NCBI GenBank assembly: GCA_963706025.1
Contig: CAVPLM010000008.1
Span: 32,001 to 96,000, forward strand
Length of the DNA stretch: 64,000 bases
Direction of reading: 5' to 3'
Origin: an uncultured Actinomycetes bacterium
GTDB taxonomy: Bacteria > Actinomycetota > Thermoleophilia > RBG-16-64-13
The notes beneath the pieces were generated by a model, which searched no databases, was not told the origin of the DNA, and saw nothing but the letters and a program-made list of their open reading frames with translations. The position numbers and the translations under genes are program-made. Below are positions 14,991 through 47,318 of this stretch, in pieces. The stretch's first letter is position 1, and every line of letters starts with the position of its first letter.

Positions 14991-15415
14991 GGCGCGGGCC
15001 TCCTTCCATGAAGCGACCGTAGGTGAGACGGGACCGCCGACCTTTCTCTAACGCCGTGAATCCCTAATGCAAGTATCTGGCTATCCGAGAGTGTAGTCAA
15101 GCCCTTCGCGAGGCGGTGGCCTGGGGCCTGGTGTGTCCTGTGTCCTGCAGGAGCGGACCTATCGATCATATACGCGAACGCACCTCTCCAGCCCGGTGCG
15201 CCACAGCAGATACAGATTCCAATCGGGGTGCCGGTTCGGCAGTTCACGAAGCCAGCTAGCGAAAGCTACAGCGCGCCCGACTCCATGAGCCACGGCACTT
15301 CTCCAGAAGATGGCGTCGGCACCGGCGGGGAGCTAGGTCCGCCGCACAAGACGGTGTTCGTCCACACCCTACAGCCACCTGAGGCCGGGTAGAGGAGTCC
15401 CCGAACGCATCCTGG

Positions 15416-15553
<138 letters not shown>

Positions 15554-15939
15554 CCACCACAGAACAGGCGTGGATGGACGCGAGCAGTCCGCACATAACG
15601 GATGGGTTGCGCCGGGTCCGATCATCCCGCCCGAGCTCAAGCTCGCCATAGGCATCGGGCAGAAGGTCACCGAGGTTCGCCCCTAGGGGCAGGGGCAGAC
15701 GCCCGTCGAAGACCAGGAGCGCGACTGCCACACTCCCTTGCGTCGATTGCCCGGCTTGTCGCAGCCGCTCTTGGCAGCCCGTCTTTTGAGGCTCTCCTGT
15801 CCCTCGGGCCAGGTCAAAGACCAGCCTACCGCCCAGGCAACAATCCCGACAGCTGGCTGGTTCCTTCGAGGGACCGTGTTTGTATTCTACGTTGTAGAGT
15901 GTTCGACACCGTAGAAACGACAGAGCGGGAGAAGAGGCA

Positions 15940-22878: not shown

Positions 22879-23019
22879 CGTTGTGCCGCGCAAGCGGTAC
22901 CGGGGGTTCGAATCCCACCTCTCCGCTTAGAAAAGCCAAGAACGGCATGTCGGGCCCGGCCCGGGTGGCCGGGTTTTCGCGTCTTCGAGGCGAGTTCGGG
23001 GGCAAGTCGGGGGCAAACT
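22879..23019 (+). repeat. tRNA-Ser 3' fragment plus full module
   Basis: CGTTGTGCCGCGCAAGCGGTACCGGGGGTTCGAATCCCACCTCTCCG, then AAAGCCAAGAACGGCA, hairpin-TTTT and GGCGAGTTCGGGGGCAAGTCGGGGGCAAACT. Confidence 0.92.
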
Positions 23020-23221
23020 AGGGAAAAAACGGGTGCTGGACGGACGCGTACAGTTCTGCTCCCGGGGACTGGCAATCAGTGGCCGCTGCTCTGGCTCAAA
23101 TCCTGGGGCTGCACTTGTCAGAACATAGCGTGATCTGGAGGTCCGGTGAGCATTGCCAAGCAGGACATGGAGATTCCTGCCTTCCGCCGACCGGCGAAGC
23201 CCCGGCGGCAACTCCTGGCGG

Positions 23222-25648: not shown

Positions 25649-25951
25649 GACCCTTCCTTGTTTCGACCCCGGTTCGGGCCGGCTTCGAGAGTTCTCTGTC
25701 CGCAACTTTAGCCCACTCAGACGAGAACGGCGTACTGGGCCGCCTCATACCTCCCCCGCCGGAGAACCGCCGCGTTGCGAAGACGCGGTGAGCGATGGGG
25801 CAGGCAACCAGACAGGCGAAGCGGGCCACTACCATGCCAGGGCGATGGTCCGCCCGGATCTAGACGTGCTGGAGCTCATGCGCGCCTGTCTGCGTGCGTC
25901 GTTGTCGGAGCGTGGTTTCGAACTCCCCGAGGGCTTTTCGACCCAAACCCA

Positions 25952-26100
25952 AAAACCGTTGTGCGCCTTTGGCGGTACCGGGGTTCGAATCCCCCCTTCT
26001 CCGCTTGGGAAAGCTGGGAATCGGGTTTGGGGACCCGGTCCGCATGGCCGGGTTTTCGCGTCTTTCAGGCGAGTTCGGTGGCAGGTCGGGGGCAAACTCG
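25952..26100 (+). repeat. Variant tRNA-Ser 3' fragment plus full module
   Basis: AAAACCGTTGTGCGCCTTTGGCGGTACCGGGGTTCGAATCCCCCCTTCTCCG, ACCCGGTC..GGCCGGGT-TTT hairpin, GGCGAGTTCGGTGGCAGGTCGGGGGCAAACTCG. Confidence 0.9.
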
Positions 26101-26265
26101 TCAACACGCCAGCACGAAACGGACGAAGACGGACTCCCACTCACGAGTCAGCGTGCGGCGCGCCGGTCATCAGCGAGCCTGTCACCAGGCGCCGGCGACG
26201 CTTGTGTGTCCAACACCCCATGCTAGAGTGAGTTCGTCTGGTCTTCGTAACCATTCGCACCAGGG

Positions 26266-27927
26266 GTGATGACGATGGCAGAACGTAGGCAAGCCACCGA
26301 CCTTTCCTATTCATCGTTGATGAGGGAAGGCGGTGCGGCAGACAACGGATCAACATCGAAGACGCTGCGGTTCATGGTAGGGAGGCTATCTATGGCCTCC
26401 TCACCCGGACTGGTCAAGCTCGCCAATAGTCGTGTCGTCCAGGGAGTGGTCGCCCGGGAAGTGCAGAAGTATCTGCTGAGCAAGCTCAAGGCTTCTCGCT
26501 CAGATTCCCGCTATCTGCCGAGCGTTCAAGATGATCGCATAGCCATGGGGATAGCCATCATGGAATCGCTTCGTCGTGGCCTGAGAGGAAAGCATCTCTC
26601 GGACGCCTTTCTACGAGGGATGCTCCAGGTCCTGATCAAGACACTCTTCCTTGATCGGGGGAATCCAGAACAGCAGCAGCAGTTCCAGGAAGCCTTCGGC
26701 AAGCGGGCTCCGAGCTTCCTACTAATGGCCCCCGGGAAAGCCTGCAACCTTCGCTGCCCGGGCTGCTATTCCGACTCGGACGACAACAGGAACAAGCTCG
26801 AATGGAGCCTCGTCGATCGCATCATGGAAGAGGCCAAGAGCCTGTGGGGAGAGCGGTTCTTCGTCATCAGCGGCGGAGAGCCCTTTGTCTACCGTTCCGA
26901 AGGCAAGGACATCATGGAGCTTTTCGAGAAGCACCAGGACTGCTTCTTCATGGTCTATACGAACGGTACCCTCATCGATGATCGAGTCAGCAAGCGACTC
27001 TCCGAAGCCGGCAATGCGCTGTTGTGCCTTTCGGTGGAAGGCTTCAGGGAGCGCACCGACGCACGTCGGGGTGCCGGGGTATTCGACCGGGTCTGCGAGA
27101 CAATGGACCGGCTAAATCGGGACAGGGTGCCCTTCGGCATCTCGTTGACGGCCACGCGCGACAACGTGGAAGAGATCCTGTCAGACGAGTTCATAGACTT
27201 CATGATGAAAAAGGGCGCCTTACTGGGCTTCATTTTCCACTACATGCCCATTGGCCGCTCCTTCTCCCTTGATCTGATGCCGACCCCGGAACAACGGGCC
27301 TGGATGTGGAAACGTTCGTGGGAGATCGTGCGAGAGAAGCAGCTCTTCCTGCCCGACTTCTGGAACCACGGTACGTGTGTCGATGGCTGCATAGCTGCCG
27401 GAGGGCATGGCCAGGGCGGCTATTTCTACATAGACTGGAACGGCGCCGTGACGCCGTGCGTGTTCATGCCTTACTCCCCGGTGAACATCCACGATGTGTA
27501 CGCGCGAGGCAGGACGCTGAACGACGTGTGGCAAGAGCCCTTCTTCCAAGCCGTTCGCCAGTGGCAGTACGAGTACATCGACGACGGGAGGAGCATGTTG
27601 GCCCCATGCCCCAACCGCGACCATCACGATGAGCTGGAACGATTGCTGATTGAGTACGAACCAGAGCCGACCGACACCAACGCTGCCGAGACACTGATAG
27701 ACCGCGAATACACGCGCGGGTTGGTGGCCTACAGCCGGAGACTCGAAGCGATCACGGGTGGCATCTGGGAGAAGCACTACTTGCAGCGCAAGGCTGCCGA
27801 GAACGAGCTCTTTGCTCCGTTGCCAGACATACCGGTCGTCGAGGAAACAGCGCCTCACGAGGAGTGTGGGTATCCCGAAGAACCAGACGGCGTGCCACGG
27901 TCGGAAAGCACGAGCGTCCCCGTCTGA
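26266..27927 (+). CDS. Radical SAM/SPASM-like protein
   Basis: CNLRCPGC, SGGEPF, YTNGTLID, GCIAAG..YFYIDWNGAVTPCVF. Confidence 0.93.
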   Translation: MMTMAERRQATDLSYSSLMREGGAADNGSTSKTLRFMVGRLSMASSPGLVKLANSRVVQGVVAREVQKYLLSKLKASRSDSRYLPSVQDDRIAMGIAIMESLRRGLRGKHLSDAFLRGMLQVLIKTLFLDRGNPEQQQQFQEAFGKRAPSFLLMAPGKACNLRCPGCYSDSDDNRNKLEWSLVDRIMEEAKSLWGERFFVISGGEPFVYRSEGKDIMELFEKHQDCFFMVYTNGTLIDDRVSKRLSEAGNALLCLSVEGFRERTDARRGAGVFDRVCETMDRLNRDRVPFGISLTATRDNVEEILSDEFIDFMMKKGALLGFIFHYMPIGRSFSLDLMPTPEQRAWMWKRSWEIVREKQLFLPDFWNHGTCVDGCIAAGGHGQGGYFYIDWNGAVTPCVFMPYSPVNIHDVYARGRTLNDVWQEPFFQAVRQWQYEYIDDGRSMLAPCPNRDHHDELERLLIEYEPEPTDTNAAETLIDREYTRGLVAYSRRLEAITGGIWEKHYLQRKAAENELFAPLPDIPVVEETAPHEECGYPEEPDGVPRSESTSVPV

Positions 27928-28230
27928 TCCTGTTCCTGGATACATCGTCTCATGTGGCTAGCCCCCCGCGAAGCGGCCGATCGCAAGGGCGCAGTCGATG
28001 TGGCGGCCGGCTTCCATTGGGCAAGAGGACACCGGACCACATAGCGGCACGAGCTTGCGCCCGTCGCTGCGACGAGGCTGGGAATGGCCGCCCTGGACAC
28101 ACGCGGACGCAGAGGCGTAGGATGAATGCGGCAGCGGACCTCGGCGACTGGAATACAGCTGCAGGTTATGCCGGCCGTAGGCGTTATCCGACGAGCCGTC
28201 TTCAGTCCGTTACGCGAAGGGGGGTGGCAC

Positions 28231-28764
28231 GTGGGCAAGCAGAAGCTGATACTCCTGCTCATCAACGTCATTGGGGGGATCGCTGTCATCGGCAGCTACA
28301 TCCTCGGGCTGAGCGGGGATTCGGGCACGGATGTGCTCTGGGGCGGAGTCCCGGAGAGCATCCGGCCCGTCTACGCGGTCTCCATGGTCTTCTCAGCCAT
28401 CGGGTATTTCGCCTTCCTCAACCTGCTCCTCCTGCGCGTGGACCCCAAGGAGGTGACCGTAGGCCGCCGCTTCGGGTACAGCATCTTCTATCCTATCTTC
28501 GTCCTGATTCTTATCCCCTCAGCCTTCTGGATGCCGCTCACCAACCTGTACGTGGACGATCCCAGCAGTGGTACCTGGGCGGGCATCCGCGTCGTGCTGT
28601 TCCTGGTGGGGCTGGCCTCCATCGCGCTGGCGTGGGCCCTGTTTACTCTTCGGCCGGGAAACCGAGGCAAGGCCTACTGGGCGGCCGTAGTGGGTAGCTG
28701 CTATTTCGCCTTCCACACCTTCGTGCTGGACGCGATCCTGTGGGCCGCGCTGTTCCAGAGCTGA
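28231..28764 (+). CDS. Hypothetical multi-TM membrane protein
   Basis: About five hydrophobic helices; GTG start with a G-rich RBS. Confidence 0.75.
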   Translation: MGKQKLILLLINVIGGIAVIGSYILGLSGDSGTDVLWGGVPESIRPVYAVSMVFSAIGYFAFLNLLLLRVDPKEVTVGRRFGYSIFYPIFVLILIPSAFWMPLTNLYVDDPSSGTWAGIRVVLFLVGLASIALAWALFTLRPGNRGKAYWAAVVGSCYFAFHTFVLDAILWAALFQS

Positions 28765-28786
28765 CCAAGCTCCCGACGGTCCATCG

Positions 28787-29542
28787 CTAGTTGCCGGTCG
28801 AGGCGAGCGCGCGTAGCAGGCGCAGGGTGGCGGCTACGGTCTGGCTCTGCTGGTCTTCACGACTGATCGTGGCGACCCCGTCCCCAGGCTGCTCTCCATA
28901 CCAGCCGAACTGAGCGTGGTTGCCGCCGTCGACGATCACGAACTCGGCGCCCCCGGGCAGCAGGGGCGTCGTCCGAACGATGTCATCCGGAGTCGTCAGG
29001 CCGTCTTCGGTCGCAGAGACCGAGGTCACCCGGCCTTCCCAGGGAGAGAGATCGTCGCCGGACGAAGGATAGGCCGCCCACAATACGAGGCCCTCTACCG
29101 CTGGGGGATCCGAGGCCACGAAGGCAGCGGCCATGGCTCCCCCCAGTGAATGCCCGCCCACGGCCCACCGGCGGATCTCGGGGAACTCTGCGATGACATC
29201 CGCAGCCCGATCGGAGTCCAATACGGCCAGGTTGAGGGGCATGGGCGCAATTGCGACCAAGAAGCCCTGCGCAGCCAGGGCGCGCATGGCAGGAGCGTAG
29301 GAAACCGGGTCGATGCGGGCCCCGGGATAGAAGACGAGACCTATGGTCGGGGTCGTCTCGTTCGGCCGGAACAGGATCACATCGTCCTGGATGACCGTCA
29401 CCTGCTCGTCCGTCACCATGGCCGCGACCGCCTCGGGCATCGGTCCCAAGGGGGTCTCCGCCCAAATCACGAAACCTAGCACGGCTGCGAGCACCACCGC
29501 GCCAAGCGCGACCAGCGCCCACACCCACCATCTGCGCTTCAC
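28787..29542 (-). CDS. Alpha/beta hydrolase (Abhydrolase_5)
   Basis: FYPGARIDP, GGHSLGG, GGNHAQFGWYG; N-terminal TM anchor. Confidence 0.92.
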   Translation of the reverse strand: MKRRWWVWALVALGAVVLAAVLGFVIWAETPLGPMPEAVAAMVTDEQVTVIQDDVILFRPNETTPTIGLVFYPGARIDPVSYAPAMRALAAQGFLVAIAPMPLNLAVLDSDRAADVIAEFPEIRRWAVGGHSLGGAMAAAFVASDPPAVEGLVLWAAYPSSGDDLSPWEGRVTSVSATEDGLTTPDDIVRTTPLLPGGAEFVIVDGGNHAQFGWYGEQPGDGVATISREDQQSQTVAATLRLLRALASTGN

Positions 29543-29564
29543 CGTGATGCCCCCAGCACGGCTG

Positions 29565-30562
29565 CGCGCTACCGCTGCCTACGTCCGAGGAAGGGGACCA
29601 GGACCGGTGTCCGCCGTTTGTAGGCCTCGTACGCTTCCTGGCCGCCCCAGGTCGTGTCGGCCTTCTTCTCAAGGAGCGGCACGCCGCTCACCCGGGTGAT
29701 GAGCAGATAGACGAAGACCGGCGAGATGAGCGTCACGAACTGCCAGCCCCGCAGCACCGGCAGGGCGATGAGGGCGATGCCGATCCAGAGGGTGATCTCC
29801 CCGAAGTAGTTGGGGTGCCGGGAGATGGCCCACACACCCGAGGTGATGAACGAGCCCTGGTGGGCAGGGTCGGCCCGGAAACGGCTCTTCTCGAGGTCGG
29901 CGACGGCTTCGAGCCCGAAACCGATCGCCCACACCCCCAGGCCTACGAACGCGAAGCAGGTCGAGTCCCTGGGGCTCGGTCGAGGTCACGGCCGCCAGCG
30001 CGGCGGCCAGGGTCAGGCTCACCCACAGCCCTTGCAGCGTCCAGGTCATAAAGAGGCGGGGAGCGGAGCGCTTGATCTCATCGAAGCGGTCGTCCTTGCC
30101 CGCTCGGCGCACCCGGCGAAAGAGGAAGGGTCCCAAACGTCCGGCCCACACGAGTACCAGCACCAGCAGCAGGATGGAGCGGGCGTCGCTGGCCCCGCTC
30201 AAAACGACGGCAAGCACGATGCCCGAGATGTAGGTGAAGCTGCCGGTAAGATCGTAGAAGCGCTCGGTCTGCCCGAGGTAGGAGGGTACGAAGGCCAGCC
30301 ACTGCACGAGGAAGGCGTAGCCGACGATAAGCGCGAAGACCGGCATGACCCCAACAGTGACCCCACCCTGGGAGCCGGCCCAGGCGACCAGGCCGGCGAC
30401 CAGAACGACCACGAGCGAAGCGGCGATCGACGAGGCGCTCTTTTTGCCGGCCATCTGCTGCTCCTCGGGGACGGTATTCGGTGCGCGCGAACTCGAAAGC
30501 CATGGTAGCAGGACGCGTCGGGCGAGTTCGGGGGCAACTCGGGGGCAGACTCGCAGGCACTC
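29565..30562. repeat. ~1 kb duplication (partner 57707-58704) ending in the GGGGGCAA motif at 30520-30553
   Basis: Near-identical by eye, about 10 substitutions. Confidence 0.95.
29569..30454 (-). CDS. DUF1295 (steroid 5-alpha-reductase-like) membrane protein, copy 1, frameshift near 29957
   Basis: ERFYDLTGS, GKDDRFDEIK, WTLQGLWV, then in the +1 frame SRHPNYFGEI, SGVPLLEK. Confidence 0.85.
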
Positions 30563-30656
30563 AGTTCGTTCATGTGTGAAGTACGTCCGCTCGGCGGGTG
30601 CAGAGGTATACTCATTAGTAGGAAGTCAGCTCCTGCATCTCACGGGGGAGCGGGAA

Positions 30657-31001
30657 ATGAGGAAAGCAGCAGCGGCTCTGGGACTGTTCGGTGGCTGGTG
30701 GGGTCTGATCTTCGCCGTCGTAGCCGCCACGGAGACAAGGGACTTTTCGACACCAACCCCATGGTTGCCCCTGGTCGCCATCGTAATGTGCGTGGCGGGT
30801 CTTGTGGCTACGGCTCTGGCGCTAAGCCGTCCACAACCTTCCTGGATCATCATGGGGGCCGCCGGTGTGCTGCTTGTCGTGGCTACTTTGGTCTCCTATA
30901 CGTCCTACTCAGATCAGTCGGATCTCTGGCGCTGGCTACTCCCCGGAATCCTTCTCATCGCGGGGTCAGCCCTCGAGTTTGCGGTCGGACGAGCAAGGTG
31001 A
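30657..31001 (+). CDS. Four-TM membrane protein
   Basis: GGGAG RBS; hydrophobic helices. Confidence 0.7.
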   Translation: MRKAAAALGLFGGWWGLIFAVVAATETRDFSTPTPWLPLVAIVMCVAGLVATALALSRPQPSWIIMGAAGVLLVVATLVSYTSYSDQSDLWRWLLPGILLIAGSALEFAVGRAR

Positions 31002-31113
31002 AAGGTGTTGCCCAAAGCTCACCGTGAACCGTAGGAAGCGCCCTATGGATTTCAGCGAACCCGCGCCAAAGGCGAAGGAATAGCGACCGGGTTAGGGAGA
31101 CAGTTGAAGCTCC

Positions 31114-31253
31114 TGCGCCCTCGGCGTACCGGGGGTTCGAATCCCCCCCTTTCCGCTTCCGCAGGCCAAGAACGGCACGGCAGCGCCTGGCCCATGAGGT
31201 CGAGCTTCTCGCTTCATTCGGGCGAGTTCGGGGGCAACTCGGGGGAAACTCGA
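31114..31253 (+). repeat. Variant tRNA-Ser 3' fragment plus module
   Basis: GCGCCCTCGGCGTACCGGGGGTTCGAATCCCCCCCTTTCCG, GCCAAGAACGGCA, GGCGAGTTCGGGGGCAACTCGGGGGAAACTCG. Confidence 0.88.
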
Positions 31254-31500
31254 CGGCACGCAAAACGGGTACCGGGACTTGACACTCGACAGCACGGAAA
31301 GAGACGAGACGGACGAGGACACCGAATGGCAGCCATGCTTCTCCCACCATGCGGGTATAGAATCAGATTGGACCTGTGGCAAATGTTCCAGGGCCGAGAT
31401 AGGCCCTCCGAATAGGCAGCATAACGGAGTACGATTCTCGGATGGTTTATTCATTGGCCGTATATCGGGTGGGAACGCCAACTCGGATCTTAGTAATACC

Positions 31501-34270: not shown

Positions 34271-34555
34271 AGATTGGGACGCGCAAGCGCCGGCGCAAAG
34301 ATGCACCGACACGCATGTGCGAACGATCGGGGGATCCGTGAACGTCCGCAGGCTGATCGTCATCCCTGCTACCGCGCTTCTCTGTGGCTGCGTATTCGTG
34401 GTAGCCGGGTGCATGACTCCCGAGAACCTAGCTGAGCTGACCACGACCACCGCGGCACCAAGTGTGTCCGGAACGCCCCCTATCGGGCCCCGCAGCATTT
34501 CTGGGCCCGTGGGTGTAGCGTTGGCCTTGTATCTCACTCAAAGGAGGGGACGGCA

Positions 34556-34909
34556 ATGGAACTGATAGATGCCCTGCTGGGAGACGTTCCCATGCTCGTG
34601 GCCACTGGGACCATAGACCACAGCACGTGCGGTGTTCTGCAGGCGGCCCTTCACCGAAGACTCGAGTCCCGCCATAACATCGTCTTCCTGGATCTCAGCA
34701 ACGTCACCCATATGGACGACGCCGGTCTCTCGGTCCTCCTCGCCTGGGTGCAGGCCTTGCACGGGAGAGGATGGCTGGGGGTGATCGGGCCAAACGTCGA
34801 CGTCCGCCGCCTTCTGGAAGGCGAGGGGTTCCTCGTCCATCCGAACGTGCGCGTCTTCGAAACCAGGCAGGCGGCTCTCGTTGCCACGGGGGAGAGGCAA
34901 AGCACGTAA
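34556..34909 (+). CDS. STAS domain / anti-sigma antagonist, copy 1
   Basis: ATGTIDHST, VFLDLSNVTHMDDAGLSVL; AAGGAGG RBS. Confidence 0.85.
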   Translation: MELIDALLGDVPMLVATGTIDHSTCGVLQAALHRRLESRHNIVFLDLSNVTHMDDAGLSVLLAWVQALHGRGWLGVIGPNVDVRRLLEGEGFLVHPNVRVFETRQAALVATGERQST

Positions 34910-34990
34910 CCAAGCGGGATCAGCGAAGCTTGGCATGGACCGTCCGCGTCGACACCCGGGACAGAATGAACGGAATGAGACGGACGCCAA

Positions 34991-35840: not shown

Positions 35841-35995
35841 GTAGCAGGGAAGGGAAAGAGACGGACGTGAAGGCACCGGACGATACAGCCCCCTCTCTCC
35901 GGTAGGCCGCCAGACAACCATGAACCTTTGCTCGGTTCCGCGCAATGGAGGACGCGCCTGCGTGGCCCCATCAGAGGCCGCGAGATGGGGGTCCC

Positions 35996-36592
35996 CTACC
36001 GCCCCTGCTGCTCTCGACCGCCCCTCTTCCTGACGAGAAGCCAGGGAAGCGCGAGCAGGATGACAGCCGCCGCACAGCCGACGAGGGTTCCCGCAAGAAC
36101 GCCGGGGACCCGAAAGCTAGTGGCGGCCAGGGCGATGAGCCCGAGCAGGGCGCCGGCGAGAGCGGTCAACCCCAGGTTCCGCAGCCACACTCCGACGACA
36201 CGGGTATCGACGAAGGCTGAGGATGGCAGTTGCCCCAGCCAGAGAAGGACTTCTGTCAAGACCACCAGACCGGCGGCGTACGCGATTATCGAGAAGGTGC
36301 CCGCCCGGCCGGTCGCTTCGACCACCACATATTCGGCCGCCAGGCTGAAGAGGGCGGGGCCTGCGAAGTGGATGCGGGAGAACAGAGCGAGCAGCGTGAA
36401 AAGCACGCCAACGGCTCCGAGCGCCGTCACAGCCGGGACTAGGCTGCCGGCGCGCACGATGGGATAGGCGACGAGGGCGCCGGCCATGACGACCGCCACT
36501 GCCCCCAGCCCTATGCGAATACGTATCGCGCGAAGCGACGGAATGCTGTCACCTCCTCCACTACAGCCGCGAGAGGGGCTCGGCCGTCCCAC
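35996..36592 (-). CDS. Membrane protein, last gene of the MoxR operon (start uncertain)
   Basis: Multiple hydrophobic helices; abuts or overlaps the DUF58 gene. Confidence 0.65.
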   Translation of the reverse strand: MGRPSPSRGCSGGGDSIPSLRAIRIRIGLGAVAVVMAGALVAYPIVRAGSLVPAVTALGAVGVLFTLLALFSRIHFAGPALFSLAAEYVVVEATGRAGTFSIIAYAAGLVVLTEVLLWLGQLPSSAFVDTRVVGVWLRNLGLTALAGALLGLIALAATSFRVPGVLAGTLVGCAAAVILLALPWLLVRKRGGREQQGR

Positions 36593-37779
36593 TCGAGGAC
36601 CGCGACCCCCGACTGCTCGAAGCGAAAGCGCATGGCATCTCGCCAGAGACGCCAGAACCGGGCAGCGAGAGCATCCAGAGAGTCTGTACTGTCGCCGACA
36701 TATGCCAGCGGCGAGATCTCGATGACCACCAGGTCGAACCCCCGCCGGCGCAGGTTGAGCAGCGCGTGCAGGCCCCGCTCGTCCAGCAAGGGGGTGAGGG
36801 CGATGACCAGAGCCTGCGGCGTCAGGCAGCGGGACGGCAGCGCATCGATGTCCTTCCAGGCGAACGAGAAGGCGATCTCTGTCTCAAGCAGAGCCTCGAT
36901 GATCCGATAGTGCTGGACGCTGCCGCTGCTCGGGGTGAGCCAGCGCACCAGGCCGCCGAAGCTGACGAATCCGACACGGTCGCGTACCGACAGGTAGTGG
37001 CTTGCCAGCGAGGCAGCGGCCCGGACGGCGACATCAAGGGTGCTCTCATCGTGGCCTCTAGCCTCCGCAAAGCTGTCGACGAAGATGATGACGTCGCTGT
37101 TGCGCTCGGGATGCTGCTCGTTCACATACAGGGTCTGATGCAGGGACGAGGCCCGCCAGTTGACGCGACGCGGGCGGTCACCGGGCGCGTAGGACCTGAT
37201 GTCGGCGAACTCAATGCCCTCGCCGCGGGCTCGGGCCACCCGGTTGCCGGCAAAGGGCTGCGTGTCGAAGGGCTTCACCAGGGACCGGAGCCGCTCGGTC
37301 CGCGGGTAGACCTGGAGTAGCGAGTGGCCGCGCACGCGGGCGTCCATGAAACGGAGGCCGGCCGCGTCACTCACGCGCCAGATGGCGTCGCCGAGCTTAT
37401 AGGCCCCCCAGCGGTCGCACGTCAGGCGAAGGGGTACCCGCCGCTCCTCCTCCGCGTCCAGCGCGAGCAAGAACGCAGCCTCTCCCACGGCGAGCCTCAC
37501 ACCGTCGGGAAGGGAGAAAGAAAGGTAGAGGGCCGGGGTCCTGGACGATGCGTGGGCAACCAGTTCTGCCTCTACCTCGTCACCTTCCAGCACCCGCTCC
37601 TTCTTGGCCTCGAGCGTCGCCCTGACGATGCCCGGCCGGGGCGACGCAAGGCCGAGGACGAGAACGAGGGCGAACGGCGCGCCCAGCGCCGCTAACTCGG
37701 GGCGGCCGAGCGCGAGTGCCAGAAGAAAGACGACCGCGGCAAAGGCGCCATAGATGACCAGCTTGGGGGAGCGCTTCAT
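36511..37779 (-). CDS. DUF58 domain protein
   Basis: GEGIEFADIRSYAPGDRPRRVNWRAS; DRVGFVSFG. Confidence 0.92.
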   Translation of the reverse strand: MKRSPKLVIYGAFAAVVFLLALALGRPELAALGAPFALVLVLGLASPRPGIVRATLEAKKERVLEGDEVEAELVAHASSRTPALYLSFSLPDGVRLAVGEAAFLLALDAEEERRVPLRLTCDRWGAYKLGDAIWRVSDAAGLRFMDARVRGHSLLQVYPRTERLRSLVKPFDTQPFAGNRVARARGEGIEFADIRSYAPGDRPRRVNWRASSLHQTLYVNEQHPERNSDVIIFVDSFAEARGHDESTLDVAVRAAASLASHYLSVRDRVGFVSFGGLVRWLTPSSGSVQHYRIIEALLETEIAFSFAWKDIDALPSRCLTPQALVIALTPLLDERGLHALLNLRRRGFDLVVIEISPLAYVGDSTDSLDALAARFWRLWRDAMRFRFEQSGVAVLEWDGRAPLAAVVEEVTAFRRFARYVFA

Positions 37780-38759
37780 CCGCGCGCCGGTTCTGCTTCT
37801 CTGGGTGACGGGGCGGGAACGGTGTCGAGCACTTCCCGGACGATCTCTTCCGTCGACACGCGCTGCACCCACTGCTCCGGCCGCAGGGTCAGACGGTGGA
37901 CCAACGCCGGCACGGCAACGTCCTTCACATCCTCGGGAGTGACGAAGTCACGCCCCTGAAGAACAGCTCGGGCCCGCGCAAGGGTGTACAGGGCCAGGGA
38001 GCCCCGAGGGCTCGATCCCACCTGGACGCGGCGGTTCTCCCGTGTCTGCCGGACGAGGTCGACCATATAGAGCCGGATGCTCTCCGAGACGTAGACTTTC
38101 TCGATGGTGCGCTGCATAGCCAGCATCGTGGCCGCGTCGATCACCGGGTCGAGCTCGATGTACTCCTGCCGACGCTCGCCGCGCCTCGCCAGAACAAGCG
38201 CTTCGTCTGCGCGCTCCGGATAACCGACGGATAGGCGGAGCAGGAAGCGATCGAGCTGTGCCTCGGGCAGCGGATAGGTGCCTTCGTATTCAATGGGGTT
38301 CTGCGTGGCGAGCACCAGGAAGGGCCGGTCCAGCCGGTGAGTGGTGCCCTCGATGGTGACCTGCCGCTCCTGCATCGCCTCCAGCAAGGCGGCCTGGGTC
38401 TTCGCCGGGGCGCGGTTGATCTCGTCGGCAAGGAGCAGGTTGGCGAACACAGGTCCGGGATGGAACTCGAACTCGCCCCGTTTCTGGCTGAAGATGGAGG
38501 CGCCAGTCACATCGGAGGGCATGAGGTCGGGGGTGAACTGGATGCGCCGGAACACCAGTGAGGTCGCCTGGGCGAATGAGCGGGCGATAAGCGTCTTGGC
38601 TAGCCCCGGAAGATCCTCGATCAACACGTGCCCATCAGCGAGCAGGCCGAGCAGGACCAGCTCGAGTACGGCTCGCTTGCCCACGACTGCGCGCTCGACC
38701 TCACGCAGGATCGCCGCCCCCAGCAAGGCGACTCGCTCGAACGCCAGGTCTTCCATCAC
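37776..38759 (-). CDS. moxR: MoxR family AAA+ ATPase
   Basis: GHVLIEDLPGLAKT, RIQFTPDLMPSD, LADEINRAPAKTQAALLEAM, YPLPEAQLDRF. Confidence 0.96.
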   Translation of the reverse strand: MMEDLAFERVALLGAAILREVERAVVGKRAVLELVLLGLLADGHVLIEDLPGLAKTLIARSFAQATSLVFRRIQFTPDLMPSDVTGASIFSQKRGEFEFHPGPVFANLLLADEINRAPAKTQAALLEAMQERQVTIEGTTHRLDRPFLVLATQNPIEYEGTYPLPEAQLDRFLLRLSVGYPERADEALVLARRGERRQEYIELDPVIDAATMLAMQRTIEKVYVSESIRLYMVDLVRQTRENRRVQVGSSPRGSLALYTLARARAVLQGRDFVTPEDVKDVAVPALVHRLTLRPEQWVQRVSTEEIVREVLDTVPAPSPREAEPARG

Positions 38760-39265
38760 AGGTTCTCCAGTTCCTCGACGAGTTGCTCGACTTCGTGCTC
38801 CGACCAGCCCGGGGCGGACCGGTCTGAGTCCGAGCGGTAGTCCGGCCGCACGAGTTCCCAGGCGCGCCCCTCCCCGAGGATGCCCGCCGCTCGGTCGGGC
38901 TCACGCTCCAGATCGACGCCGTAGCTCCGGGAGAGACGGGCTGCGACGATGTCGCGCACAGGGGTCCGCAGCCGGAAGTAGAGGTCCGACCGGCTGTAGC
39001 GGGCGATCGCGACCCAGAGCTTCACCGTCTCGAACTGCTCCGCGTGCGCCTCCGGCAGGGCGGGCGGGGGCAGCATCCTACGAAACTCCACGGCCAGGGG
39101 CAACACGCGCCGGAGCCGGCCGATGAGCATGGCGAACAGCAGCGCCACCAGGAAGATCACGTATGCGAGCAAGACCAAGCCCTGCGCCACCCCGGTGAGC
39201 ATGAGGGCGATGACGAGGGCAACCGTTGCAGCCAGTCCAAGCAAGGCTGCCTTCCAGATCTTCAT
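38756..39265 (-). CDS. Membrane protein of the MoxR operon
   Basis: Two TM helices; 4-nt overlaps with both neighbours. Confidence 0.8.
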   Translation of the reverse strand: MKIWKAALLGLAATVALVIALMLTGVAQGLVLLAYVIFLVALLFAMLIGRLRRVLPLAVEFRRMLPPPALPEAHAEQFETVKLWVAIARYSRSDLYFRLRTPVRDIVAARLSRSYGVDLEREPDRAAGILGEGRAWELVRPDYRSDSDRSAPGWSEHEVEQLVEELENL

Positions 39266-40173
39266 CCCACCTCTTCCCCCAGCTCATGCCGAAGCGTGAG
39301 GAGAGCTGCGGTCGCCTCTTGCTTCATGTCCTCATCGACCAGGTGGAGACTGAACCGGGCCCGCTCGTACAGTCGGGTGAGAGCCTCGGCCGGCGAGCGG
39401 CTGACACGGACCGCGCTCGACCAGCGGGCCAGATACTCAAGGGGAGCCTCAGACGGTCTCCGTGCCAGCCCGTGCCGCGACAATGCCTGTTCCATGCTCG
39501 CATAAGCGCCGATGACGGCTTTCCGCGGGTCGGGATCTTCTTCCAGCTCCTCCAGCGATGCTTCGACCGCAGCCAACAACTCTTCGCGTTCTGACGGTGC
39601 GCTCTCAGCCTCGACCTCAAGGCGACGGCGACGCAGCAGGACTGTCAGCAGCAGGCCGGCCAATCCGAACAGCGCCAGTCCCAAGAGGATCCACCAATGG
39701 ATGACGAAGGTCTGGGCCGCGGACTGATCGCTTCCCAAAGGGGGCAGGCCGACCGGCGGAGCGAAGCCGAGCGGAGTCGTGGAGCCATCACCTCCGTTCC
39801 GAGCGGCGACCCCGATGAACACCGCAAACAGCATCAGCGCTACGAGGCTGGCAAGAAGCCTCTGACCCCAGGAAGTGGGAGCACGCGCCTCGCCTCCGTC
39901 AATCCCTGATCTCCGCTTGCGGAGATGCGATACCCATATGTAGACCAGCAGGCAGAACTCCGCGACGAGGATGGCGCCCAGGATCACGAAGAGATCACCG
40001 AGAACGACGCGGGCATCGAGCAAAGTGCGCGAGGGAGAAACGTTGGCGAACGACCTGCGACTGCCGAGCGCGACCAGGAAGACCAGGGCGGCAGTGAGGG
40101 CTGTCAGCCACGCCTGTCTCGAAAGAGAGGATCGACTCGGTCCCGGCTGAGCGGTCCGTGACACTGCCTGCAA
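39262..40173 (-). CDS. DUF4129 domain membrane protein
   Basis: DPRKAVIGAYASME..RRPSEAPLEY..LTRLYERARFS. Confidence 0.88.
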   Translation of the reverse strand: MQAVSRTAQPGPSRSSLSRQAWLTALTAALVFLVALGSRRSFANVSPSRTLLDARVVLGDLFVILGAILVAEFCLLVYIWVSHLRKRRSGIDGGEARAPTSWGQRLLASLVALMLFAVFIGVAARNGGDGSTTPLGFAPPVGLPPLGSDQSAAQTFVIHWWILLGLALFGLAGLLLTVLLRRRRLEVEAESAPSEREELLAAVEASLEELEEDPDPRKAVIGAYASMEQALSRHGLARRPSEAPLEYLARWSSAVRVSRSPAEALTRLYERARFSLHLVDEDMKQEATAALLTLRHELGEEVG

Positions 40174-40325
40174 ACCTCCTGGTCCGGCGTACGTTGTCTA
40201 CGCCCCTACTTAGCGGCCCCGAGAGACCACCACCACAATGGGACAAAACGGTGCCTCTGTCCAGAGGGTTGCCCCTGTCACGGGGGTACCTGGCACTAAG
40301 CCTGGGACAAGGGGGCGCCAGCGCC

Positions 40326-40379
40326 CGAAAACCGTTGTGCCGCGCAAGCGGTACCGGGGGTTCGAATCCCCCCTCTCCG
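40326..40379 (+). repeat. tRNA-Ser 3' fragment starting exactly at the anticodon
   Basis: CGAAAACCGTTGTGCCGCGCAAGCGGTACCGGGGGTTCGAATCCCCCCTCTCCG. Confidence 0.93.
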
Positions 40380-40513
40380 CTTGGGCGCAGGTATTCTTCG
40401 AAACGAGCCGGTCCACCTCGGGCTTAGGGCGGCCGATTCTCGAAAGCCGAGGCGGTCCCCTGTTGAGCCCGACACGGCTTGAGCAAGAACTCGCTGCCGC
40501 CTAGTCCTGCCGC

Positions 40514-41707
40514 CTATTCCTCGGGCGGCAGATCGATCACGTTCGTCGGAGTGCCGTGCGCCGCCATCAGGTCGAGGAACGGTCTGGGGTCGATCCGCTC
40601 CGGGGGGAACACACCCCTATTCGTGATGAGACCACGGATCAACATGATGGCTGCACAGGCTGCGGGAATGCCGGTTTGGAACCCCGTCCCCTGGACTCCG
40701 TACCGCTCGAAGGCCTCGTCGTGTGAAGTCGCCTGGTACATGAACCGGCGCACCGGCCTGCCCGCGACGGTGCCTTCGGCCAACGTGCCCACGCAGGCCG
40801 TGCCGTGCATCTTGCCGATCAGGTCCACTGAGCGCGGCAGGCGTGAGACCAGTAGGTCCAAGGGCCGGAACCGGGCCCCTTCAAACTCGATGGACTTGTT
40901 ATGGGCGAACCCGAGCTTGCTCCACACCTGTAGCAGGTTCACCCATTCATCCGCCAGGGCGATGAAGAAGTCGGCGTTTCTCAGGCCTTTCCCCGACAGG
41001 TAGAGCGGCATCAGTTGCGATTCCTCGTGGTCGACATTCCACACCTTCAGCCGGCCCACAGGCTCCGGGAATTCGAAGTGTCGCCAAACGGTCATGGGGT
41101 CCCGCCGGACAAGGCGCCCGTCCTCGAAGGCGTGCGGTGGCAGGATAAGACATTCCTCCACCATGGTACTGGGGGAGAAGCTGGGCGCGAACTCCACTCC
41201 CTCGACCGTGCTGTTGTCGCCGTCGAAGACCGTCAGCGCCTCCAGCGTGTCGAACTGGTCGTAGAGCGCCCGCGCGAATACGTCGGATGCTCCCGGGTCC
41301 ATGCCGAAGAACACTAGACCGGTCAGTCCCCGGCGCTTGAAGTCGCCGTTAAGCGCCAACTCCTCGTCCACATCCGCCGTACCGACAATGTCTCGGGGCC
41401 CAGCCGCGGCCATGTCCAGGTAGTGGGTCCCGGTTTCCAGACAGGCGTTCATGACGTCCAGGTTGTACTCAGGTATCAACGCGTTTATCACCAGGTCCAC
41501 ATCGGCCAGAGCGGCCACGAGAGCTTCGGCATCCTCCACATCCAGAGGCCGTAGCTCTACCTTGCCCGCAGCAAGCCGGGGCGCCACCTCGGCCAGCCTC
41601 TGCTCGTCGATATCGACGAGCACGACCCCGCTCACCTCGGGGATCGAGGCCAGGGTACGCGCGGTGACTTCGCCGACCGAGCCGACGCCGAGCTGCAGCA
41701 CTTTCAT
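40514..41707 (-). CDS. Saccharopine dehydrogenase / carboxynorspermidine synthase-like protein
   Basis: LGVGSVG, VMNACLETGTHYLDMA, GMDPG, FPEPVG..DHEE, QTGIPA. Confidence 0.88.
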   Translation of the reverse strand: MKVLQLGVGSVGEVTARTLASIPEVSGVVLVDIDEQRLAEVAPRLAAGKVELRPLDVEDAEALVAALADVDLVINALIPEYNLDVMNACLETGTHYLDMAAAGPRDIVGTADVDEELALNGDFKRRGLTGLVFFGMDPGASDVFARALYDQFDTLEALTVFDGDNSTVEGVEFAPSFSPSTMVEECLILPPHAFEDGRLVRRDPMTVWRHFEFPEPVGRLKVWNVDHEESQLMPLYLSGKGLRNADFFIALADEWVNLLQVWSKLGFAHNKSIEFEGARFRPLDLLVSRLPRSVDLIGKMHGTACVGTLAEGTVAGRPVRRFMYQATSHDEAFERYGVQGTGFQTGIPAACAAIMLIRGLITNRGVFPPERIDPRPFLDLMAAHGTPTNVIDLPPEE

Positions 41708-41899
41708 GGTTCACCTCCGTGGACGGAACGATCCTGCGCCCTAACAATACGCCTGCGCACTTGCTAACGTCGGCGCGATGGTGTCTGATGGGGATGCTCA
41801 GATCCGCTTACCAACGGGCGGTGTTCTCCGCGCCACATGTGGCCTGGAGAGCTTCATCTGCCGCACGTATGCAAGCGCTCCAACTGATGGGAGGCGACC

Positions 41900-43459
41900 A
41901 TGGCGAACGAACCTGTCCCGTCCGTGGCGAGTGAGATCAGCGCCGAACGCAAGATGCTCAAGCGTTCGCTGACGTTGCTGCCGCTTTTCGGGATCATCTA
42001 CTTCACCGTCAGCGGGGGGACGTTCGGGATCGAGCCCCTCTTCAGCTACTCGGGGGCCGGCATGGCCCTCCTTCTCATCTGCATCATCCCCTTCATCTAC
42101 AGCCTCCCCTACATCCTGATGGTGCGGGAACTACAGTCCATGATGCCCGTAGAGGGCAGCTACTACTACTGGACCAAGGAGGCCTTTGGGCCGTTCCCCG
42201 GCTTTCTGATCGCCTGGATGGACTGGGTGCTGACGTTGGTCGACGTGGCCATCTACCCGGTGCTGGCGGTGACCTATCTGAGCTTCTGGGTCCCCCAACT
42301 GACTGAAGGCGGCTGGGGTATGCCAGGCTGGGTGGTGCAGTGGCTGGCGGCTATCGCCATCATCTTGATCATCTCGCTCCTGCAGATACGGGGAGTGCGT
42401 TTGGCCGGAATGACCAGCGTCTGGATCGGGGTCATCCTGTTGATACCGATCGCAATCATGACCGTGCTCGGCTTCTACAACTGGGGAGCGCACGGGAGCA
42501 CCTTCGACATGATCTTCCTGCCCCAGGACACGTCGGTGTGGGGTGCCTTCAGCATCGGCTTATTCGTGGTCATGTGGAACTACATGGGCTGGGAGTCGCC
42601 GACCACCGCTGGTGACGAGATCGTCAAGCCCAGACGCACCTATCCCTTGGCCATGGCCCTGGTGCTCATCGCGGTAATCGCGACCTACGCCCTTCCGACG
42701 GTCGCCGCCCTCTACGGAGGCGCCGGTGAGGACAACAAGGTGCTGCTCTGGGGTCTCGAAGAAGAGGATGGCATCGGACAGGTGCTGCTCGAGGGGGGAA
42801 TGACGCAGGAACAGATGGACGCGGCGGGGGTCGACCCCACCGCCACGGAAGGTTGGTGGCTGCCGGACATCGCTCAGGCGGTAGGTGACGAGACGGCCGG
42901 CGAGGGAAGTTGGTTCGGGTCGTTCTTAGGCAACTTCATGATGGCGGCAGCCTTCCTCAGTATGGTCGGTCTGCTCATCGGTTGTAGCATCTCGGGTACG
43001 CGAATGCCGTTCGCTGTGGCGCAGGACGGGATGGCGCCCCTGTGGCTGGTCCGCGTTCACCACAAGTGGGGGACGCCGTGGGTCGCCATTGCGGTGACCG
43101 GCTTCTTCTTTGCCATCTTCTCGGTCAATGCCTTCGCGGCGTTGGTCGTCCTCGACGTGCTGCTCAACTCGTTCACGGTGCTCCTTGACTTCGCGGCCCT
43201 CTGGTGGCTGCGCCGAAAGAGACCCGACATCCCGCGGAGCAAGATACCGGGGGGTCTGGTCGGGCTGATCATCGCGACCATCCTGCCCGCGGCGGTCATC
43301 GTTTTCGCCATCGTGAGCCAGGTGAAGGAAGAGGGGTGGCGGGCCATCTGGCTGGCCGCGATCGCCATTGCGATCGCGCCTATCCTTTACTTTCCGTTCC
43401 GCAAGTATCTCAAGAAGGATCGTGGCGTTCCCGACGTGAATCCTTATGTCGAGGCGTGA
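41900..43459 (+). CDS. APC family amino acid/polyamine permease
   Basis: YFTVSGGTFGIE, MPVEGSYYYW, WNYMGWE, RMPFAVAQDG; about 12 TM. Confidence 0.92.
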   Translation: MANEPVPSVASEISAERKMLKRSLTLLPLFGIIYFTVSGGTFGIEPLFSYSGAGMALLLICIIPFIYSLPYILMVRELQSMMPVEGSYYYWTKEAFGPFPGFLIAWMDWVLTLVDVAIYPVLAVTYLSFWVPQLTEGGWGMPGWVVQWLAAIAIILIISLLQIRGVRLAGMTSVWIGVILLIPIAIMTVLGFYNWGAHGSTFDMIFLPQDTSVWGAFSIGLFVVMWNYMGWESPTTAGDEIVKPRRTYPLAMALVLIAVIATYALPTVAALYGGAGEDNKVLLWGLEEEDGIGQVLLEGGMTQEQMDAAGVDPTATEGWWLPDIAQAVGDETAGEGSWFGSFLGNFMMAAAFLSMVGLLIGCSISGTRMPFAVAQDGMAPLWLVRVHHKWGTPWVAIAVTGFFFAIFSVNAFAALVVLDVLLNSFTVLLDFAALWWLRRKRPDIPRSKIPGGLVGLIIATILPAAVIVFAIVSQVKEEGWRAIWLAAIAIAIAPILYFPFRKYLKKDRGVPDVNPYVEA

Positions 43460-43542
43460 CATGAAGGCGCTCTTGGTAGGCCAGGAACTGCGACGTATGA
43501 CCGCGGGGCTAGATGAAATACGCGGCCACGTGGTTGCTCTAC

Positions 43543-43623: not shown

Positions 43624-43659
<36 letters not shown>

Positions 43660-43847
43660 TATGGTCTTCCGCAAGAAACCACGAAGTGGCTCCCACCAAG
43701 GTATGGGGGGATTCCGAACCCGCGAGGGCGCGAGCGTCAGCGAGACAGTCCCTTTGGACTGTCGAACAGCGAGCGGTCTGAGCCGAGCCGGACGGCGAGG
43801 CAAGGACGGCAGCTTGCGCGGCAAGATGCGCGAATCCCCCCTCTCCG
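43660..43847 (+). mobile_element. ~190 bp tRNA-linked element, copy 2
   Basis: Near-identical to 9288-9476; followed by the module hairpin at 43876-43900. Confidence 0.75.
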
Positions 43848-43946
43848 CTCGTTCGGAGGACAAACTTGATCTGAAGCCCGGTCAATGGGGCCGGGTTTCG
43901 AGCGCTGCTCGCGCAACGACTGCTATGATTCGCGAAGCGATCGAGA

Positions 43947-44750
43947 TCAGGTCCCCAGGAGGACCACCGCGTCGACGAACAACTCGTACTCGTCGTCCTC
44001 GTCCAGATCGCGGATGAGCACCTTTTCGACCTCGCCCTCGCCACGCACGGCAAGCAGGCGGGAGCGGAGGAGCACCTTGACGTCCGAGCGCTTGACGCCG
44101 GTCGCCACTTCCTCGGGGAGGCCGAGTGTCTCGAGCTCGGTGACGAAGATGACTCGGGGGGTGACGCCCGTGAGCGCGAGGGCAAGCCGGGCCGAAGGGA
44201 TTCCCTTGTCGACCACGAGCACGCGTTTGTCGGCGAGCACCGAGACATCGTCGAGGGAGACGTAGACGCCCTTGCCGGCATACTCTGCGACTCCCTGGAC
44301 CACCGTCGCCTCGCGGGCGCCGCAGCCCGCTCCCGCGGCGGCGATCTCTTCCGCGCCGAGGGGAGTGAGGCGCTTACCCGAGCGCCAGTTCTTGATGGCG
44401 TCGTGCAGCGCGTCGGCCGCAAGGTTCGAACAATGCATCTTGACCGGCGGCAGGCCGTCGAGGGCGTCCGCCACGTCGGCCCGGGTGACCTCCACAGCCT
44501 CGTCGAGGGTCTTTCCCATGACAAGCTCGGTGATCATGCTGGACGTGGCGACGGCCGAGCCGCAACCGAATGTCTGGAACTTGATGTCGTCGATACGGTC
44601 GTCCTTGACGCGAACGTACATCTCCATGAGGTCGCCACAGACAGGGTTACCGACGCGACCCACGGCCACGTCGTCGCCTTCGAGAATGCCTACGTTGCGG
44701 GGGTTGCGAAAGTGGTCGAGCGTCTTTTCGGAGTATTGAGTGGATTTCAT
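43947..44750 (-). CDS. iscU: IscU/NifU scaffold with C-terminal thioredoxin-reductase-like extension
   Basis: YSEKTLDHFRNPRNVG, GNPVCGD, FGCGSAVA, LPPVKMHCSNL; extension EYAGKGV..DKRVLVV..LFVDAV. Confidence 0.88.
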   Translation of the reverse strand: MKSTQYSEKTLDHFRNPRNVGILEGDDVAVGRVGNPVCGDLMEMYVRVKDDRIDDIKFQTFGCGSAVATSSMITELVMGKTLDEAVEVTRADVADALDGLPPVKMHCSNLAADALHDAIKNWRSGKRLTPLGAEEIAAAGAGCGAREATVVQGVAEYAGKGVYVSLDDVSVLADKRVLVVDKGIPSARLALALTGVTPRVIFVTELETLGLPEEVATGVKRSDVKVLLRSRLLAVRGEGEVEKVLIRDLDEDDEYELFVDAVVLLGT

Positions 44751-44759
44751 AGAAACTCC

Positions 44760-45938: not shown

Positions 45939-45950
45939 CGGAGAGTCTGC

Positions 45951-46313
45951 CTAGAACCACATGGTGGCGCCGGCATCGAGAGCGAGATCATTCAGGGTCG
46001 CCGCGCCCACAATCTTCACCCCCTCGATGAGCTCGACCGCATCCCATCCGAGCATCTGCTTGGACGCTTCGCACACCAGAATGGGGATGCCCATTTCCAT
46101 GGTCTTGTCGAGCATCTCACGCACGCTCGGGAACGTACCGAGCTTGATCTTCTCGGCCTCTCCGGGTCGCAAGATGAGCAGGCCCATGCCGAGGTAGTAG
46201 ACCGTGGGCTTCAGATCCATCGCCTTCGCCGACTGGGCGAGTACGAGCGGAGAGTACTGTCGTGGAGGAGCGTCGCTGGTTTGCACATACAGGATGGCAT
46301 TCTCGTCTTTCAT
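45951..46313 (-). CDS. DsrE family protein
   Basis: VYYLGMG, GIPILVCEAS, ELIEGVKIVGAAT. Confidence 0.82.
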   Translation of the reverse strand: MKDENAILYVQTSDAPPRQYSPLVLAQSAKAMDLKPTVYYLGMGLLILRPGEAEKIKLGTFPSVREMLDKTMEMGIPILVCEASKQMLGWDAVELIEGVKIVGAATLNDLALDAGATMWF

Positions 46314-46325
46314 GGTGCTCGCCTC

Positions 46326-47227: not shown

Positions 47228-47318
47228 GCTCGACCGTCAAGGCCCGTGTCTGCCTTGAGAACGGATTGTGGCTTTCGATAATATGACAGATTCCCACGTC
47301 TGGGGAGGGCTGGACCGA

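Follow-up and report, generated by a model that had tools for sequence, protein, structure and literature searches.

Variant but paired variable arms in two tRNA-Ser(CGA) scars of a cassette array from an uncultured Thermoleophilia bacterium

The window analysed here is a stretch of 64,000 nt (G000:C8:32001-96000, from contig CAVPLM010000008.1 of assembly GCA_963706025.1) of an uncultured bacterium of the Thermoleophilia, in which a tRNA-Ser(CGA) gene is followed by a row of 3' fragments of the same gene, that is, attachment (att) scars with cargo genes between them. G000 stands for the own genome, C8 and the like for contigs, and G001 upward for the genomes of relatives; G001 and G003 are congeners, and the further genomes include other genera of the family. 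The intact tRNA-Ser(CGA) at the head of the array (9198-9287, + strand; called by ARAGORN, Rfam tRNA score 58 bits) is the sole tRNA gene in the window, has the native variable arm GTGCCGC-GCAA-GCGGTAC and is identical in G000, G001, G002, G003 and G015. Local alignment to this gene detected ten 3' fragments, all on the + strand like the gene and spread over 52 kb downstream. Fragment starts lie at 9459, 15413, 22879, 25952, 31113 (31126 in strict alignment), 40326, 43624, 43831, 47316, 55700 and 60642, those at 9459 and 43831 being only 17-18 nt long. The T-loop motif matched ten times in the window against 0.76 matches expected, and 0 of 100 shuffles reached ten; the tRNA fragments are far above chance level. 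Between them lie genes for a P-type ATPase, a radical SAM/SPASM enzyme, hydrolases, regulators and transporters, arranged in cassettes of 0.6-9 kb with a common junction module of ~100 nt. Two fragments, at 25952-26003 and 31113-31155, carry a variable arm that is not the native one, and the origin of these arms is the subject of this report.

Variant fragment 1 (25952-26003, + strand) corresponds to tRNA positions 38-90, from the anticodon loop to the 3' end, and matches the native gene at 45 of 52 aligned bases with one gap. Its arm reads GTGCGCC-TTT-GGCGGTAC, and its T stem has 4 G instead of 5. Variant fragment 2 (31113-31155, + strand) has a normal T arm and the arm (C)TGCGCC-CTC-GGCGTAC; strict local alignment begins only at 31126 because this arm differs from the native one. 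In both copies the same two neighbouring pairs have exchanged their bases between the strands, C-G having become G-C and G-C having become C-G, giving the stem CGCC/GGCG against CCGC/GCGG in the native tRNA, while the loops differ between the two variants. The first-pass annotation had reported these letters at both positions and had described the arms as alternative yet intact. Both observations were confirmed, the second by RNAfold, which gave hairpins of 7 pairs for the native arm (-12.3 kcal/mol), 7 pairs with one bulged G for the 25952 arm (-6.4 kcal/mol) and 6 pairs for the 31113 arm (-7.4 kcal/mol). The acceptor strands, to which it had also pointed, do differ by one C-to-T each (CTTCTCC at 25952 and CCTTTCC at 31113, native CCTCTCC), and each change would give a G-U pair with the host 5' strand. 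However, they are not evidence for an allele, because they are single transitions, of which one is missing from the near-identical contig L153 described below. When the host 5' half was combined with either variant 3' part, the ARAGORN call remained tRNA-Ser(CGA). The left edge of the second copy needs a separate remark. The small cassette to its left (30529-31120, + strand) is 92% identical to two copies in G003, which match up to ...CTCCTGCG, including the TGCG of the 31113 5' strand, and then continue into unrelated non-tRNA sequence. Because the G003 copies run on past the joint, this edge is a secondary deletion joint, which probably arose at the TGCG microhomology; the other letters of the 31113 copy and the related alleles still fit a tRNA origin of the whole TGCGCC strand.

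Both junctions were compared with the contigs of four metagenome runs (X1, X2, X4 and X9, from four studies) aligned to window 25700-31400, and the 25952 junction also with L153, an independent metagenome contig of 6.9 kb. L153 was the only match to the arm-plus-T-loop pattern in the metagenome collection and represents the same locus: over 3 kb that span the 25952 junction in both directions its identity is 97.5%, and it repeats the arm letter for letter, together with the 4-G T stem. The stretch 25952-25997 is covered by contigs of X1 and X4, with no change there among the differences listed, and in one contig of X2 a fifth G follows 25979 in the T stem. The 31113 junction was spanned only by X1, in a 696-nt contig (30562-31242) with 3 other letters. 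X1 is the best-covering run and may be the source sample; since X2, X4 and X9 give no cover of 30666-31047, this junction stands without independent support. As for the serine isoacceptors, neither tRNA-Ser(TGA, GGA, GCT) nor tRNA-Sec of the own genome has the variant arm or its T arm. This result, together with the reproduction of the 25952 junction and both its flanks in L153 and in the runs of other studies, argues against a derivation of the fragments from a further serine isoacceptor of this genome and against artefacts of assembly or binning. The contamination of the bin (7.3%) and a second identical tRNA-Ser(CGA) on C7, with a different row of cassettes, would suit an artefact, but we regard such an origin as extremely improbable. 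Of the two sources first proposed, another species' tRNA-Ser or another isoacceptor, the isoacceptor of this genome therefore falls away since none of its other serine tRNAs has the arm; a foreign allele family remains the best reading, although the exact source tRNA was not found in the genomes and metagenomes searched.

The resident tRNA-Ser(CGA) genes of the family were examined in 24 other genomes, in which all 19 genera are covered. They differ mainly in the variable arm, with few differences in the D loop, and the pairing of the arm is kept: the stem is GTGCCGT/ACGGTAC in G007, GTGCCCC/GGGGTAC in G010, GTGCCTC/GAGGTAC in G006, G021 and G023, and GGGCCGC/GCGGTCC in G016, G020 and G024. 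The tRNA of G008 has exactly the variant stem (GTGCGCC/GGCGTAC), but with the GCAA loop and another T stem, and a TTT loop is present in that of G011. Arms other than the resident one were common among the fragments of the own genome and of relatives. The G007 allele was found in the fragments G000:C5:687218, G001:C6:13786 and G003:C13:21322 and also in a second full-length gene, G001:C9:445415-445503, and the allele of the own genus in the fragments G011:C1:33896 and G019:C8:121370. Furthermore, G001:C6:44878 has a fully paired arm, GTGCTGT-GTC-ACAGCAC, matching no known source, and G001:C6:18837 has a worn relative of the variant arm (..TTCGC-TTT-GGCGTAT..). The full-length G001:C9 gene (minus strand) is itself unusual: it is 91% identical to tRNA-Ser(CGA), has the anticodon loop CTCAAAA, was called tRNA-Leu(CAA) by ARAGORN and is followed by a junction module. 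It would be a copy in decay or else a tRNA of the serine type whose anticodon is that of leucine.

A close relative of the variant arms was found in environmental DNA. In three studies (runs X1, X2 and X4), contigs agree with the window from 31122 onwards; upstream of this point they carry the stem and loop of the anticodon, next GTTCGCC-TTC, and this part joins CGGCGTACC and the T arm. The arm of this environmental tRNA-Ser(CGA), GTTCGCC-TTCC-GGCGTAC, belongs to the CGCC/GGCG family, and since the sequence reaches beyond the anticodon loop on the 5' side, it cannot be a displaced fragment. These findings bear on whether the two fragments simply decayed in place after their displacement, one copying the other by gene conversion, with coincidental pairing. 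Decay does occur in such fragments, as seen in single uncompensated changes at C10:35486 and G001:C6:15915 and in the acceptor C-to-T changes and the lost G of the present copies, and a ~110-nt patch in L153 (see below) shows conversion-like replacement in the region. However, four coordinated transversions that keep two pairs are unexpected without selection on the hairpin, and related arms exist in the environmental tRNA and in G008. Since loop, bulge and length differ, neither variant is a recent copy of the other. Decay in place thus seems to us quite improbable. The earlier statement that decay would not yield compensatory changes held up, as the swaps occur in both copies; sequencing error is no explanation either, as L153 reproduces the 25952 arm, and we take the variant arms to be a distinct allele family of tRNA-Ser(CGA).

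An origin of this allele in another lineage, or on a mobile element itself, is well supported by the covariation of the arm within the family, by the arms of other genera in other fragments and by the related environmental arm. Our preferred reading, which we hold to be probable though far from certain, is that the two variant fragments are att scars descended from element-borne copies of a different tRNA-Ser(CGA) allele, with the stem CGCC/GGCG, that circulates in related bacteria. Under this reading, cassettes would have been inserted successively into the 3' half of tRNA-Ser(CGA) by site-specific recombination. Each element would carry a tRNA 3' part of its own, with which insertion completes the gene, and the previous 3' part would be displaced downstream as a fragment; the source allele of the variant copies would circulate in related, co-occurring bacteria. 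Fragments starting in the anticodon loop were found in the own genome at 25952 (position 38), 40326 (position 36), C5:685676 and C3:200323, and at least 8 more in relatives. If the crossover lies in that loop, the 3' part including the arm came with the right-hand cassette and once completed the host gene. The findings further imply that a recipient acquires chimeric tRNAs through integration. What seryl-tRNA synthetase recognises is that the arm is present and how it is oriented, not its sequence. The arm can therefore drift by compensated changes and differ between genera, so that a scar keeps a lineage-specific allele; being a self-contained hairpin, it tolerates such changes without harm to the tRNA and works as a lineage mark.

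The allele may instead belong to the mobile elements and not to a donor species: the tRNA-like att segment would evolve with the elements, selection would keep it foldable whenever it serves as the 3' part of a host tRNA, and the arm would mark an element family. A chromosomal source allele turned up neither in the 61 genomes of the family set (the own and 60 others) nor in the 401 of the class set (the own and 400 others sampled), the environmental tRNA could be a host gene completed by such an element, and three or four related variant forms are known only as fragments. However, other foreign arms in fragments are letter for letter the resident allele of another genus, which shows exchange between chromosomal alleles and fragments, and the constancy of resident alleles within a genus (G000-G003, G015) argues that they are owned by the host. 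We consider an element-owned allele possible but on balance unlikely.

The junction modules bear on how far an arm identifies the cassette next to it. The module, located with an nhmmer profile, consists of a hairpin and a T-run followed by two tandem direct repeats of ~12 nt. It follows five junctions, at 15456, 22926, 26004, 31156 and, without a tRNA piece, 9601-9748, and partial modules were detected at other cassette borders, e.g., 30518-30562. Variant fragment 1 is followed by the module at 26004-26108 (+ strand), with the repeats GTTCGGTGGCAG and GTCGGGGGCAAAC, and variant fragment 2 by the module at 31156-31261 (+ strand). The repeats at the module end are GTTCGGGGGCAA and GTCGGGGGCAAAC, e.g., at window 15520-15561; in G007, G010 and G021 a repeat pair of the TTTGGTGAC type occupies the same module position instead, a swap that would be expected of binding sites for recombination proteins with changed specificity. 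The hairpin and T-run are likely the terminator of the tRNA. By its layout the module could be a P' arm, with the tandem repeats as putative arm-type binding sites. Window 26004-26108 aligns with L153:1546-1650 over ~110 nt at only ~70% identity, between flanks of 97.5%. The divergence begins just after the T loop and ends with the module, and it looks like a replaced patch or a gene conversion between module copies. In addition, arms of the G007 type in the own genus precede the module type of the own genus. Because of these two observations, arm and module must have separate histories.

Several crossover positions are suggested by the fragments. Signs of a crossover in the T loop were seen in a hybrid at C10:28499, in the L153 patch and in the own-genus modules behind G007-type arms. 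The hybrid (C10:28455-28499) has an arm and 5' T stem of the Ser(CGA) type joined at the T loop to a 3' T stem, an acceptor strand and a flank that are of the Ser(TGA) type, and lies at the far end of a tRNA-Ser(TGA) array; the same element family therefore appears to have used a second serine tRNA as well. A third position may be the variable loop. The resident tRNA-Ser(CGA) of G019 (C8:109032-109119) has the mispaired arm GTGCCGC/GAGGTAC and a G019 fragment near 115184 the mispaired arm GTGCCGC/ACGGTAC, and three fragments in G001 and G019 have a common left border between ggt and CGCGCAAGCGG. The G019 arms look like two alleles joined in the loop, where a crossover site may lie. When the flanks of fragments with the same allele were compared for the side on which an allele travels, we found one left-flank match of 26 nt (G003:C13 and the 25952 copy) and one left-to-right match of 35 nt within G001; the only other match was the common module, which also occurs in left flanks. 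Joints at 26004-26090 and 31128-31217 were not counted as signs of excision, since they fall in repeated sequence and their sides are 20-25 nt long (20-52 nt over all joints listed).

The cassettes are shared with close relatives. Those common to G001 and G003 occur there in shuffled order, one of them inverted, and most pieces are 92-96% identical, e.g., 35917-40327 (94.4%), 43912-46670 (95.1%) and 40488-43465 (93.9%). The core genes upstream of the tRNA are 81-89% identical to congeners and 72-88% to other genera, and the PIN-gene region is 76% identical. The higher identity of the cassettes argues for exchange after the species split. A block at 16357-19207 matches G003:C8 at 89% and is inverted relative to the other shared cassettes. 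For other genera the case is less strong. The P-type ATPase gene left of the 25952 copy had no congener among the matches listed (three congeners), its best match being 87% in another genus, and for the radical SAM gene to the right, identities in other genera are 75-83%; a piece of 535 nt (~28236-28770) exceeds the core range, with 93% identity to one genome from a different genus. In G043, G045 and G060 one contig carries both the cargo homologues and the syntenic core block, which suggests that the flexible region behind the tRNA is old and family-wide. The first-pass annotation had proposed a cassette pool shared across taxa; this is borne out among congeners, whereas the identities of the two cargo neighbours to other genera fall within the core range.

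No recombinase accompanies these scars. Recombinase and transposase families were absent among the 72 open reading frames (ORFs) of the window that were scanned; PF00589 gave 8 six-frame matches in the genome, none of them on contig C8; the tyrosine recombinases at C5:446714 and C3:452353 are intact. A tyrosine recombinase adjoining a fragment on C18 (15757-16480) is frameshifted, and partial PF00589 matches lie near the C10 and C5 arrays. In ~300 kb of arrays from relatives, integrase matches occurred only in G001:C6, where the stronger one (3362-3820) overruns the open frame. As the integrases of the cassettes appear to be lost, present-day movement, if any, would need a recombinase in trans.

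Several of these results weigh against our preferred reading, and they concern the donor, the link between scar and cassette, and the machinery. Exact variant arms, whether in a tRNA or a fragment, were absent from the 60 other family genomes; in the 400 other class genomes the only 2 matches were chance hits in protein-coding sequence, and in the metagenome collection only the same locus, L153, was found. The environmental arm is itself absent from the 61 family genomes. With no exact arm in the genomes searched, the donor would be an unsampled lineage, or the allele lives on elements. The identities of both cargo neighbours in other genera (75-87%) lie within the core range of 72-88%, and the tRNA-Ser T-loop motif was found in 0 of 12 stretches around cargo homologues of other genera (flanks of ~0.4-2.6 kb). 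The 25952 copy would make a poor tRNA part in its present form because of its 4-G T stem, and no intact cognate integrase was found beside the fragments in the own genome or in the ~300 kb of relatives' arrays. Finally, the separate histories of arm and module mean that a simple reading of one scar as one donor fails. The suggestion that the fragments act as donor barcodes is thus kept in a weaker form: foreign arms in other fragments do equal the resident arms of other genera, and the variable arm shows that att DNA is foreign but does not yet point to one cassette or one donor. On whether a functional tRNA with this arm exists, the lack of which had been named as one refutation, the genomes of family and class gave no exact arm, and the nearest are the related environmental arm and the same stem in G008. 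A scan of genome contigs for the arm pattern alone gave at least 120 loci, with 0 of the 120 listed tRNA-like, and is uninformative either way.

The remaining fragments of the row are of the native type or degenerate. All lie on the + strand. Native alleles are present at 15413-15455 (tRNA positions 48-90, then the module 15456-15561), at 22879-22925 (positions 43-90, then the module 22926-23028) and at 40326-40379 (positions 36-90, from the anticodon loop). The fragment at 43624-43659 covers positions 55-90. Degenerate fragments were aligned at 47316-47339, whose left flank accompanies a methyltransferase cassette in G001 too, at 55700-55740 (positions 49-89, 39/41 identical) and at 60642-60675 (positions 50-83, 33/34 identical). 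Directly 3' of the host gene lies a conserved element of ~170 nt (9288-9476, + strand), closed by the 18-nt tRNA 3' fragment at 9459-9476 and repeated at 43660-43847, behind the fragment at 43624-43659, where it ends with the short fragment 43831-43847. The element is found directly 3' of tRNA-Ser(CGA) in at least six other genera (G004, G005, G009, G017, G018 and G024). It matched no Rfam family, and Rfam gave nothing else in the window besides the tRNA; it could be a small RNA of a new type or a miniature att-flanked element. The cargo between the two variant fragments (26266-30562; Pfam and NCBIfam) comprises the radical SAM/SPASM gene (26266-27927, + strand), an ORF of 212 aa, an alpha/beta hydrolase and a DUF1295 fragment; for the unassigned ORFs of the first cassette NCBIfam gave nothing. 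Two cargo segments are duplicated at 99% identity (29565-30562 with 57707-58704, and 34499-34942 with 53094-53537), which by this identity would be recent duplications within the array. Elsewhere in the genome, tRNA-Ser(CGA) fragments with the module occur at C5:685-691 kb, on the whole of C7, and at C10:28-36 kb, C11:72 kb, C18:7-15 kb and C3:5-6 kb; the C5 row lies inside a 1.2-Mb contig and has no intact tRNA-Ser at its head. Given the contamination of the bin, some of these arrays may be strain variants. No WhiB gene was found in the genome, which by itself would make a place in the Actinomycetota improbable; the GTDB lineage of the assembly lies in that phylum.

A bolder reading of the same data would make the region a family-wide, integron-like platform, in which dozens of recombinase-less cassettes with one module are shuffled within and between genera by a recombinase acting in trans, with crossovers at several places of the tRNA, possibly including the variable loop, from which the chimeric arms of G019 would result. 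This we hold to be rather doubtful. If it were true, the arms of the scars would be a readable ledger of donors and recipients of DNA among uncultured bacteria. Unlike integrons, the present contig has no tyrosine recombinase, and its junctions are tRNA-derived with a terminator-like module.

Islands at tRNA and tmRNA genes, with a regenerated gene and the displaced 3' fragment as a direct repeat, are collected in Islander, in whose account only 4 tandems of three or more are counted for the 3,919 islands of 2,168 genomes (PMC4383910). The present locus resembles them in that an intact tRNA gene and same-orientation displaced 3' fragments mark the island ends (one tRNA and ten fragments, + strand), and the identity blocks at 25952 and 40326 start in the anticodon loop, which at 25952 would be comparable to the anticodon-centred 'A' class described there; the C10:28499 hybrid and the L153 patch point to the T loop instead. 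However, a row of ten fragments stands against the rarity of tandems in that collection, and its tandem calls require an integrase, while no island here has its own (PMC4383910). Repeated integration combined with loss of the integrase is described as leading to stacked, att-flanked elements without recombinases, the cis-mobilizable elements (CIMEs) (PMC5704250). The present cassettes are likewise att-flanked without integration or transfer genes and are stacked where the target gene ends; they differ from the CIMEs portrayed in that source in that no cognate intact integrative and conjugative or integrative and mobilizable element was identified, the host is an uncultured high-GC bacterium and the cassettes are small with a common module (PMC5704250). 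At ssrA in Dehalococcoides, more than a dozen direct repeats of the 3' end of the RNA gene were reported in the 100 kb downstream; these islands are strain-specific, integration genes are missing from some of them, and disagreement between gene and repeat sequences served to locate the crossover (PMC3146451). The system described there has ssrA as its target, a 20-bp repeat and a CcrB-like serine recombinase (DsiB) (PMC3146451), whereas here the target is tRNA-Ser(CGA), the repeats reach 54 nt and the resolvase family PF00239 gave 0 matches in the genome. The tycheposon islands of Prochlorococcus, as outlined in the preprint, are also tRNA-adjacent flexible islands with partial tRNAs between cargo and degraded integrases, and newer arrivals push older ones inward (bioRxiv 10.1101/2020.12.28.424599). 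The present locus differs from that outline in phylum and target tRNA, and no integrase or replication module of the tycheposon kind turned up, no search having been aimed at them.

By this comparison the locus would work like tandem CIME accretion at a tRNA gene, but the integrases by which the Islander, Dehalococcoides and tycheposon kinds are defined were not found. Rows of att scars commonly pass for identical repeats, and in the full texts searched (subscription journals lay outside the search) we came across no paper in which variable-arm alleles of att fragments serve to mark donors. The row architecture itself is not new. What is new, in a small but useful way, is that the scars, at up to 54 nt, are long enough to include the whole covarying variable arm of a class II tRNA, and that they carry several alleles, some of which equal those of other genera. 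Should it become possible to tie each scar to its cassette, the order of transfers and their provenance could be read in an uncultured lineage without the genomes of the donors.

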